Below are positions 379 to 22,206 of a stretch of DNA of 24,378 nt, piece after piece. The translations under genes were made by a program, and so were the position numbers. The stretch is from a virus (taxonomy: Duplodnaviria > Caudoviricetes), in the IMG/VR virus record IMGVR_UViG_3300020045_003708, positions 1 to 24,378 of that record; one strand, written 5' to 3'. Within the stretch, counting starts at the first letter, position 1; the number at the start of each line of letters is the position of its first letter. Below the pieces are notes generated by a model. That model searched no databases. It was not told where the DNA came from and was given only the letters and a program-made list of their open reading frames with translations.

Positions 379-412
379 AAAAAAACCCACTAAAATTAAT
401 TAGTGGGTTTTT
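379..412 (-). terminator. Intrinsic, potentially bidirectional terminator closing the tRNA operon
   Basis: AAAAACCCACTAA-loop-TTAGTGGGTTTTT inverted repeat flanked by A and T tracts. Confidence 0.85.
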
Positions 413-421
413 CTTTATTAG

Positions 422-503
422 TACCGAAGATGGGACTCGAACCCATAAAACCCCAGTTTCTAAGACTGGATACTCTGCCAATTCGCTTTTATGTCACTTC
501 GGT
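422..503 (-). tRNA. tRNA-Leu(UAG), atypical: short variable region, enlarged D region, A37
   Basis: Acceptor ACCGAAG/CTTCGGT with A73; anticodon arm CCAGT-CTTAGAA-ACTGG; T arm ATGGG-TTCGAGT-CCCAT. Confidence 0.85.
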
Positions 504-508
504 AAGTG

Positions 509-580
509 CTTCAGTAAAGAGACTCGAACTCCTATTTATCGGGTCGTAACCGATGGGTTTATCCATTAACCTATACTGAA
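509..580 (-). tRNA. tRNA-Arg(ACG)
   Basis: Acceptor TTCAGTA/TACTGAA with G73; D arm GGTT-AATGGATA-AACC with A20; anticodon arm ATCGG-TTACGAC-CCGAT; T loop TTCGAGT. Confidence 0.92.
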
Positions 581-585
581 AATTG

Positions 586-659
586 GGTGTTAATTGAGAA
601 TCGAACTCAAACTTTAGGATTCACAGTCCTACGCACTAACCGTTTATACTAAAAACACC
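586..659 (-). tRNA. tRNA-His(GUG)
   Basis: Encoded G-1 opposite C73; anticodon arm TAGGA-CTGTGAA-TCCTA; T arm TTGAG-TTCGATT-CTCAA; two U-U mismatches at the base of the acceptor stem. Confidence 0.88.
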
Positions 660-664
660 ATTTG

Positions 665-737
665 TTACAAAATAAGGACTCGAACCTTAACGAGTAGAGT
701 CAAAGTCTACTATGCTATCCAATTACATCATTTTGTA
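665..737 (-). tRNA. tRNA-Gln(UUG)
   Basis: Acceptor TACAAAA/TTTTGTA (U1-A72); D arm ATGT-AATTGGATA-GCAT; anticodon arm GTAGA-CTTTGAC-TCTAC; T arm TAAGG-TTCGAGT-CCTTA. Confidence 0.93.
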
Positions 738-749
738 TTTTGTATTTTG

Positions 750-819
750 TCTAAAAGACAGGATTCGAACCTGCGTACTCCCGAGTCCAAGTCGGGCATG
801 AAACCACCTTCGCTTCTAG
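750..819 (-). tRNA. tRNA-Pro(UGG), atypical: reduced D arm, A37
   Basis: Acceptor CTAGAAG/CTTTTAG (C1-G72, A73); anticodon arm CCCGA-CTTGGAC-TCGGG; T arm GCAGG-TTCGAAT-CCTGT. Confidence 0.85.
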
Positions 820-21681: not shown

Positions 21682-21755
21682 GGTCTGTAGTAGGGACTCG
21701 AACCCTACTCTCTCCACCATTCCGGTGGCGCCCTAACCGGATACGCTATACAGAC
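21682..21755 (-). ncRNA. tRNA-like element with aberrant anticodon loop
   Basis: Acceptor GTCTGTA/TACAGAC; T arm GTAGGG-TTCGAGT-CCCTAC (6 bp); anticodon arm CCACC-GGAAT-GGTGG has a 5-nt loop. Confidence 0.7.
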
Positions 21756-21891: not shown

Positions 21892-21894
21892 TTG

Positions 21895-21965
21895 AAGAGT
21901 AGGCAGGGATCGAACCCGCCTTTGTGCCGTAAAGAGACTTGCTTTACCAACTAAGCTACTACTCT
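21895..21965 (-). ncRNA. tRNA-like element with degenerate anticodon arm
   Basis: Acceptor AGAGTAG/CTACTCT; canonical D arm GCTT-AGTTGGTA-AAGC; T arm GCGGG-TTCGATC-CCTGC; anticodon stem poorly paired. Confidence 0.7.
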
Positions 21966-22118: not shown

Positions 22119-22194
22119 TGGAGGGCTTACGGGGATCGAACCCGTATCGCAAGTTAACCGCTTGCCGCTAGTCCACATTTAGCAGTAAAGCCCT
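22119..22194 (-). tRNA. tRNA-Asn(GUU)-like, non-canonical (G33, 4-nt acceptor-D linker)
   Basis: Acceptor AGGGCTT/AAGCCCT; D arm GCTA-AATGTGGAC-TAGC; anticodon arm GCAAG-CGGTTAA-CTTGC; T arm ACGGG-TTCGATC-CCCGT. Confidence 0.6.
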
Positions 22195-22206
22195 CTTTTA
22201 TTTTAA

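Follow-up and report, generated by a model that had tools for sequence, protein, structure and literature searches.

The trp attenuator has a four-segment design, and the thr and ilv leaders are multivalent attenuators. The leaders trpL, hisL, leuL and ilvL share with the tRNA cassette described here a short leader, a run of regulatory codons, an intrinsic terminator and, as predicted for our locus, mutually exclusive 1:2, 2:3 and 3:4 pairings. Phage tRNAs with changes in the anticodon loop counter host anticodon nucleases (van den Berg et al., 2023, PMC10264068); a tRNA of phage T5 acts against PARIS (PMC11464382) and phage tRNAs act against retrons (PMC11555353), according to the accessible parts of these papers. 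Like the genes of the cassette, such anti-nuclease tRNAs are copies of host anticodons in altered loops, proposed to survive cleavage or to replenish the pool after it. The accessible portion of the main text of PMC10264068 mentions neither G37 nor A37.

The cassette lies on a phage contig of 24,378 bases (Duplodnaviria, Caudoviricetes; IMG/VR record IMGVR_UViG_3300020045_003708), and the whole contig is referred to as the window. We assign a probability of roughly 0.5 to the reading that the cassette is a backup, under attenuator control, for G36-G37 tRNAs that some host agent disables, most likely an anticodon nuclease. The cassette would then be a self-contained mobile sensor-plus-backup, in which a leader of C-starting codons serves as a trp-type attenuator ahead of five tRNAs with A37.

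The window and its five tRNA genes

The window encodes a terminase, DNA polymerase A and helicases, and contains a weak tape-measure match. The terminase is closest to those of phages of Flavobacterium, Bacteroides, Polaribacter and Cellulophaga (31–36%), from which we infer a Bacteroidota host. Flavobacteriaceae are the likely host group and were used for the host comparison.

The tRNA genes occupy positions 422–819 of the minus strand in the order Pro, Gln, His, Arg, Leu, and all have G36 and A37. There is one tRNA for each amino acid with C-starting codons (the C row of the code). The anticodon loops are CT-TGG-AC (Pro), CT-TTG-AC (Gln), CT-GTG-AA (His), TT-ACG-AC (Arg) and CT-TAG-AA (Leu). 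Four genes (Pro, Gln, His and Arg) pass the RF00005 gathering threshold; Rfam gave no match for the tRNA-Leu gene (422–503), which is called by ARAGORN alone. With default settings ARAGORN calls Leu, Arg, His and Gln, and with a relaxed threshold Pro. The coordinates of all features are collected in Table 1.

Table 1. Features of the cassette and its control region in the window.
Feature	Position	Strand	Remarks
Intrinsic-terminator-like hairpin	1008–1023	−	Would insulate the cassette from upstream phage genes
Bacteroidota-type promoter	958–988	−	−33 TTTG at 988–985, 19-nt spacer, −7 TAnnTTTG at 965–958
Predicted start site	about 953	−	On the leader AUG
Leader ORF, 24 codons	879–953	−	Predicted attenuator peptide
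Sensor run CAC CGT CTT CCG CAA CCT	912–929	−	Codons 9–14; predicted segment 1
Predicted antiterminator arm (segment 2)	895–904	−	Alternative partners: sensor run, terminator 5′ arm (849–841)
Attenuator terminator	820–856	−	13-pair hairpin (856–826) and U-tract, directly before tRNA-Pro
tRNA-Pro(UGG)	750–819	−	Rfam RF00005; ARAGORN at relaxed threshold; A37, shortened D arm
tRNA-Gln(UUG)	665–737	−	Rfam RF00005 and ARAGORN; A37
tRNA-His(GUG)	586–659	−	Rfam RF00005 (586–658) and ARAGORN; G-1, A37
tRNA-Arg(ACG)	509–580	−	Rfam RF00005 and ARAGORN; A37
tRNA-Leu(UAG)	422–503	−	ARAGORN; A37, short variable region, enlarged D loop
Terminator-like hairpin closing the cassette	381–412		Flanked by an A-tract and a T-tract

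The identity bases are present: G-1/C73 in His, C1-G72/A73 in Pro, G73 in Arg, A73 in Leu and U1-A72 in Gln. None of the five genes encodes CCA. The D arm of tRNA-Pro is reduced to a 4-bp stem and a 4-nt loop, and tRNA-His has two T-T mismatches at the base of the acceptor stem. Since the Pro, Leu and His genes are structurally unusual, charging of their products is not guaranteed. By cloverleaf and identity elements, the five are canonical tRNA genes, with predicted processing and charging. An earlier reading of the window from its letters alone (the sequence-only reading) had listed the same loops, G36 and A37 throughout, as those found by Rfam and ARAGORN; it had also called the identity elements intact, which holds for the bases that it named, and left the oddities of Pro, Leu and His unmentioned. 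In the arrays L173, L209 and L267 (also L331 and L376), a tRNA-Leu(UAG, A37) with a strongly enlarged D region is miscalled by ARAGORN as Pro.

Two further observations concern the surroundings of the cassette. An ORF of 96 aa (1094–1384) in the variable slot adjoining it gave no match in Pfam, in PHROG or in tblastn against relatives. Three odd tRNA-like elements lie on the minus strand (21682–21754, 21894–21965 and 22119–22195) between the genes for an ssDNA-binding protein and DNA polymerase. Two of them show a G33, with what look like GAA and GTT anticodons and fold z-scores of −2.7 and −2.1; the remaining one has a degenerate anticodon arm and scores 40.6 bits in Rfam. Short T-arm-like matches to these elements occur in two relatives, and they are possibly processing signals or decoys.

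Base 37 in the host group and in related arrays

Host genes were compared by pattern searches of genomes from the family of Aquimarina sediminis, which we take to be Flavobacteriaceae. Housekeeping tRNA-Arg(ACG) has G37 in 59 of 61 genomes, and the other two show only an A37 gene. Among the matches listed (150 of 210 rows, 22 of 31 genomes), G37 is present in Pro(TGG) of 21 of 22 genomes, in Gln of 22 of 22 and in His of 14 of 22, the remainder being without a housekeeping-type His row; tRNA-like rows with A37 are extra copies only, in three genomes. Leu(TAG) has G37 in 12 of 13 genomes among the matches listed (150 of 426 rows, with much noise). The trmD gene is present in 41 of 41 genomes. 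Of 401 Bacteroidota genomes, 6 match a strict A37-Pro pattern, one of them being the centre genome, picked because it has such a gene.

Thus the host-group counterparts carry G37, and the window tRNAs differ from them at base 37 and often also at 32 and 38. Without G37, and facing host counterparts with G36-G37 together with trmD, the window tRNAs are by sequence of the TrmD-independent type. The sequence-only reading had put forward G37 for Gln, His and Arg(ACG) of Bacteroidota as a point to be checked, and it is G37 that is seen in the Flavobacteriaceae genes; the host tabulation that it proposed gave G37, not A37, for Pro and Leu as well, the point on which its argument chiefly depended. 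Copying of the cassette from host housekeeping genes was considered and rejected, because both loops and stems differ. In the two genomes with only an A37 Arg(ACG) gene (G046:C6:637865–637895 and G092:C18:52969–52999), the sole match is housekeeping-like with C32, A37 and A38; this may represent a possible host-side escape.

A BLAST search of GenBank phages with the window array gave Cellulophaga phage phi19:1 as the best match, with the same five tRNA genes, all A37. As the five-gene, all-A37 set recurs in phi19:1 and in many other phages, it is not due to chance. In phi19:1, the tRNA-Pro(UGG, A37) gene is unannotated (L022, 23058–23132, equal to about 31057–31131 of NC_021799.1), and so is the leader ORF upstream of it.

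IMG/VR was scanned for adjacent Gln-His genes with either purine at position 37 (119 loci of about 170) and for a three-gene pattern (78 loci). The array census pooled the three-gene-pattern loci with a tRNA cluster, the window and 20 Gln-His loci hand-picked to include A37 and G37 cases; it is a non-random sample, with duplicates removed. Viral arrays with at most one non-G36 tRNA are referred to as C-only. A37 was found in 160 of the 172 genes of 38 viral C-only arrays versus 127 of the 198 C-row genes of 47 mixed viral arrays. The A37:G37 ratio was 33:4 in C-only versus 19:20 in mixed arrays for Pro (P = 2 × 10−4) and 26:0 versus 19:9 for Leu (P = 2 × 10−3), P-values that overstate independence, since the arrays share ancestry and were picked for adjacent Gln and His genes. 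We gauged independence by clustering: mean tRNA-body identity among arrays is 0.61–0.63, and there are 25–34 sequence clusters. Among the 38, at least one G-rich array (L256) counts against our reading, being a short locus on a 23-tRNA contig.

Pro, Gln and His agree in base 37 within 55 of 70 arrays, compared with 31 expected. A37 is coupled with C32 in 201 of 277 genes, and G37 genes usually carry U32. Simple AT drift was rejected as the cause of A37, given a GC-content of 0.45 in A37 genes and 0.49 in G37 genes and the usual C32 beside A37. By these counts, A37 has been kept in the face of drift.

Several near-complete phage genomes have hardly any tRNA genes outside the C-row set. Within longer arrays there is a Pro-Glu-Gln-His-Leu-(Leu UAA)-Arg block, in some cases running antisense to the remaining tRNAs. 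Certain blocks are entirely G37, others entirely A37, and the cassette is probably a pruned form of such a block. The presence of the same block in larger arrays, and the fact that A37 by itself is not rare in phage tRNAs (127/198 in the mixed arrays above), would fit a general top-up, with an attenuator answering tRNA shortage late in infection, the C-row block being a remnant and A37 an inherited phage style. This explanation appears improbable. The non-G36 genes of the block (Glu and Leu-UAA) were lost along with their leader codons, and A37 is near-fixed in the C-only arrays alone. C-row codons are not used more often in the window (fraction 0.133) than in cassette-less relatives (0.139), and all five anticodons are already present in the host group; codon compensation was rejected on the same grounds.

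The cassette also appears to be mobile, to judge from its genomic contexts. Among 13 cassette-bearing records, a terminase is common to nine and little else is shared. No conserved protein partner was found within 10 kb of 32 viral cassettes, and the array is absent from all 21 relatives of the window found through the tape-measure-like protein, eight of which cover the same variable slot. These results bear on a takeover strategy, in which the phage itself would destroy or demethylate host G36-G37 tRNAs and monopolise translation with its A37 set. The sequence-only reading had raised such a strategy, and the set is indeed complete for one class and unlike the host at the class-defining base. 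However, neither the vicinity of the 32 cassettes nor the 13 records yielded a partner protein, terminase being the sole family common to most cassette phages. A default-off attenuator fits a response to outside stress, and the cassette occurs in bacterial chromosomal contexts too. We consider a takeover very unlikely.

The predicted leader-peptide attenuator

On the minus strand, a promoter, a leader, a terminator and the tRNA genes follow one another, and the control region of phi19:1 has the same layout. The sequence-only reading described the array but overlooked the leader-peptide attenuator ahead of it, which tells most about how the cassette works. The consensus of Bacteroidetes promoters is TTTG/TAnnTTTG with 4–5 nt spacing, according to the part of PMC6847099 that was available, and the −7 motif lies near 37 of 50 leaders versus 281 of 5000 random windows. 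The sensor run encodes His Arg Leu Pro Gln Pro in six consecutive C-row codons. The hairpin that closes the cassette is probably bidirectional, given the tracts on its two flanks.

Leaders were identified by a positional rule: an ATG ORF of 14–35 codons that ends 45–80 nt before the first tRNA and has at least five C-row codons in eight. By this rule a leader precedes 43 of 56 C-row-led arrays, compared with 7 of 63 mixed arrays and 477 of 30,000 random positions. In 12 of the 13 leaderless C-row-led arrays, a similar run was found post hoc at another distance or without an ATG.

The codon usage of the sensor zones, which were delimited by His, Gln and Pro residues alone, is distinctive. For Arg, the CGN:AGR ratio is 36:0 (background 1211:2463), and for Leu, CUN:UUR is 59:22 (background 3204:5257). 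CCG makes up 47 of the 70 Pro codons, compared with 432 of 3203 in the background, and the zones are rich in both CCG and CUA. A Glu codon is found in the zone of 9 of 11 leaders of arrays with tRNA-Glu versus 2 of 39 without. The CGN and CUN bias and the match of Glu codons indicate, on statistical grounds, that the leader samples the tRNA species supplied by the array, that is, tRNA classes and not amino acids. Leaders before the mixed viral arrays L350/L213, L187, L373 and L376 appear to include Thr, Trp, Phe, Cys and Asp codons; with such array-matched codons, codon-matched leaders would reach beyond the C row.

The leader and terminator of the window fold with a z-score of −3.8. A terminator hairpin below −6 kcal/mol is present in all 50 leaders, and the sensor run pairs with segment 2 in 45 of them. 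For 45 of 50 leaders, pairing of the distal part is better with the cognate terminator arm than with non-cognate arms, and 30 of the 50 beat shuffles (p ≤ 0.05), the value for the window itself being 0.16; the five leaders with no preference for their own arm in this fixed-window test include that of phi19:1. In six of six folded examples, a ribosome at the stop codon leaves the terminator, and a ribosome stalled in the run leaves the antiterminator in the nascent RNA. The full-length RNA still favours the terminator in several examples, so the switch would be kinetic. As folding and covariation predict, a stall within the run would free segment 2, which would pair with the 5′ arm of the terminator and allow read-through into the tRNA genes. 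Clustered cognate codons, an intrinsic terminator and a predicted, mutually exclusive antiterminator are the features of a leader-peptide attenuator, and the cassette is very probably under the control of one.

Candidate triggers and known systems

The trigger of the attenuator would be ribosomes stalled for want of working G36 tRNAs, assuming that transcription and translation are coupled in the host. Behind this shortage there would likely be an anticodon nuclease or toxin of the host, cleaving loops with G36-G37, from which A37 would escape. The tRNAs of the cassette would then be processed and charged and would resist the agent; that the agent is a nuclease would be the least certain step.

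The same attenuated cassette might respond instead to loss of m1G37: during infection TrmD might be inhibited or saturated, or run short of SAM or Mg2+, and A37 would bypass the enzyme. The set matches the host G36-G37 class, trmD is present in every host-group genome that was searched for it (41/41), and the sensor zones are rich in the CCG and CUA codons. In E. coli cells deprived of m1G37, ribosomes stall at CGG, CUA and CCN codons (of the latter, chiefly CCG/CCA in one strain), and the leuL and ilvL attenuators are tripped (PMC8384417, accessible part). The available sections of two further papers report that mgtL senses Mg2+ via TrmD-dependent codons (PMC6335274) and that unmethylated G37 tRNA-Pro is charged poorly (PMC8643618).

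Other observations make this trigger the weaker candidate. Some leader-bearing arrays carry G37, in all five genes of L392, in four of five in L360 and L377 and, in a relaxed search, in the bacterial L295; they would be useless under TrmD loss. Extra G37 tRNAs help against depletion and not against loss of TrmD, so that these arrays favour cleavage. Longer arrays also contain tRNA-Glu, a non-G36 tRNA, together with Glu codons in the leader. In addition, phi19:1 and G015 have DNA methylase genes of their own, a point against SAM depletion caused by the phage. A Pfam search of 131 ORFs (70–450 aa) from two complete cassette genomes, most of them without a match, revealed no SAM lyase, TrmD, ligase or RNase. 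We regard loss of m1G37 as a rather unlikely trigger. The two benefits are nevertheless compatible, as new tRNAs with A37, made in a burst, would also have no need to wait for TrmD.

Related arrays in bacteria were found in a genome scan that gave 49 matches, mostly accessory arrays in Bacteroidota. A37 is present in 141 of 153 of their C-row genes, and rtcB adjoins 16 of the 42 arrays with a tRNA cluster but only 2 of the 9 C-row ones. Accessory arrays alter base 37 of Asp too, T replacing the host A; Asp was the only one of their other tRNAs compared with the host. In five Bacteroidota chromosomal arrays (L283, L293, L305, L308 and L310), base 37 is altered in Glu, Asp, Phe and Leu(UAA), and their islands contain genes for RtcB, a WYL regulator, an RF-1-domain (PrfH-like) protein, Band-7, RNase-H-like and AAA proteins. 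Bacterial Pro-Gln-His cassettes with Gln-rich leaders (L294, L298 and L320) are inserted convergently beside a gene for an ABC-F-like ATPase.

Taken together, the leader-bearing G37 arrays, the rtcB neighbours and the retention of SAM-dependent DNA methylases by the phages lean to nuclease escape or replenishment. The sequence-only reading had proposed either TrmD bypass or nuclease escape and could not choose between them; the class match and the conservation of A37 on which it built were borne out. A precedent for the specificity is the toxin VapC-mt11, which in vitro cuts Arg, Pro, Leu and Gln tRNAs 3′ of G36-G37, and in vivo cuts two tRNAs only; in the single case tested, G37A on tRNA-Pro(GGG) moved the cut by one base only (PMC6459853, accessible part). 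Since this change merely shifted the cut, Pro(UGG), with its G35-G36 retained, may remain vulnerable in spite of A37. We identified no G36-G37 nuclease in Bacteroidota; Schlafen was considered as the agent and rejected, its targets in the available parts of the published work being other tRNAs. The stronger proposal, that an undescribed antiviral effector of Bacteroidota destroys the whole class of G36-G37 tRNAs in one stroke, silencing the entire C row, and that many unrelated phages acquired a protein-free alarm-and-rescue module, which senses this damage with a leader peptide and supplies A37 tRNAs immune to it, is put forward tentatively, at slightly less than even odds.

If this is true, the leader sequence would be a readable label for the target set of an undescribed defence. 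The long-standing question of why phages carry given tRNAs becomes open to a direct test: the cultured phage phi19:1 has the complete cassette, and the leader predicts the codons that must fail for the switch to turn on. The cassette points to an attack on the G36-G37 tRNAs as a class, whether through a nuclease or via TrmD, and there is a substantial chance that it reveals a defence hitherto undescribed. The natural A37 variants of tRNA-Pro and tRNA-Leu could probe the dispensability of m1G37, with a bearing on TrmD biology, and the leader could serve as a ready-made reporter of m1G37 or C-row tRNA status in Bacteroidota. In the literature searched, which mostly excludes subscription journals, we found neither a C-row A37 cassette nor the control of tRNA genes by a leader peptide described in print, and no description of a class-wide attack on G36-G37 tRNAs as a phage defence.

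Each known system differs from the cassette in its own way. Unlike the anti-nuclease phage tRNAs, the cassette applies one base change across a whole codon row, stands alone as a mobile unit and has its own predicted translational sensor. Unlike trpL-type attenuators, it would regulate tRNA genes and not biosynthetic enzymes, and its leader samples a tRNA class (CGN not AGR, CUN over UUR) across five amino acids. The mgtL leader of Salmonella (Gall et al., 2016, reviewed in PMC6335274), as described in the accessible part of the review, is likewise rich in m1G37-dependent codons, and slow decoding turns the downstream gene on; however, it acts through Rho-dependent termination, CCY codons and a Mg2+ transporter, whereas the cassette has an intrinsic terminator, mostly CCG and A37 tRNAs. 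The in vitro target class of VapC-mt11 (Cintron et al., 2019, PMC6459853, part available) is the class that the cassette replaces, but this toxin of a mycobacterial toxin-antitoxin system is narrow in vivo and proves that such specificity exists, nothing more.

The L-arrays, such as the cyanobacterial trn operon, are silent accessory tRNA operons that are induced by translational stress and linked to rtcB (PMC8421152, accessible part, whose main text is without mention of position 37). The Bacteroidota arrays related to the cassette also adjoin rtcB, WYL and Band-7 genes, as L-arrays do rtcB. L-arrays, as described there, are long, mixed and controlled by promoter repeats, whereas the window cassette, with five genes of one class and a leader attenuator, is not a long mixed array. 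The parts of the cassette are of known kinds, and what is new is that they are joined in one protein-free module for sensing and rescue that serves a single codon row.
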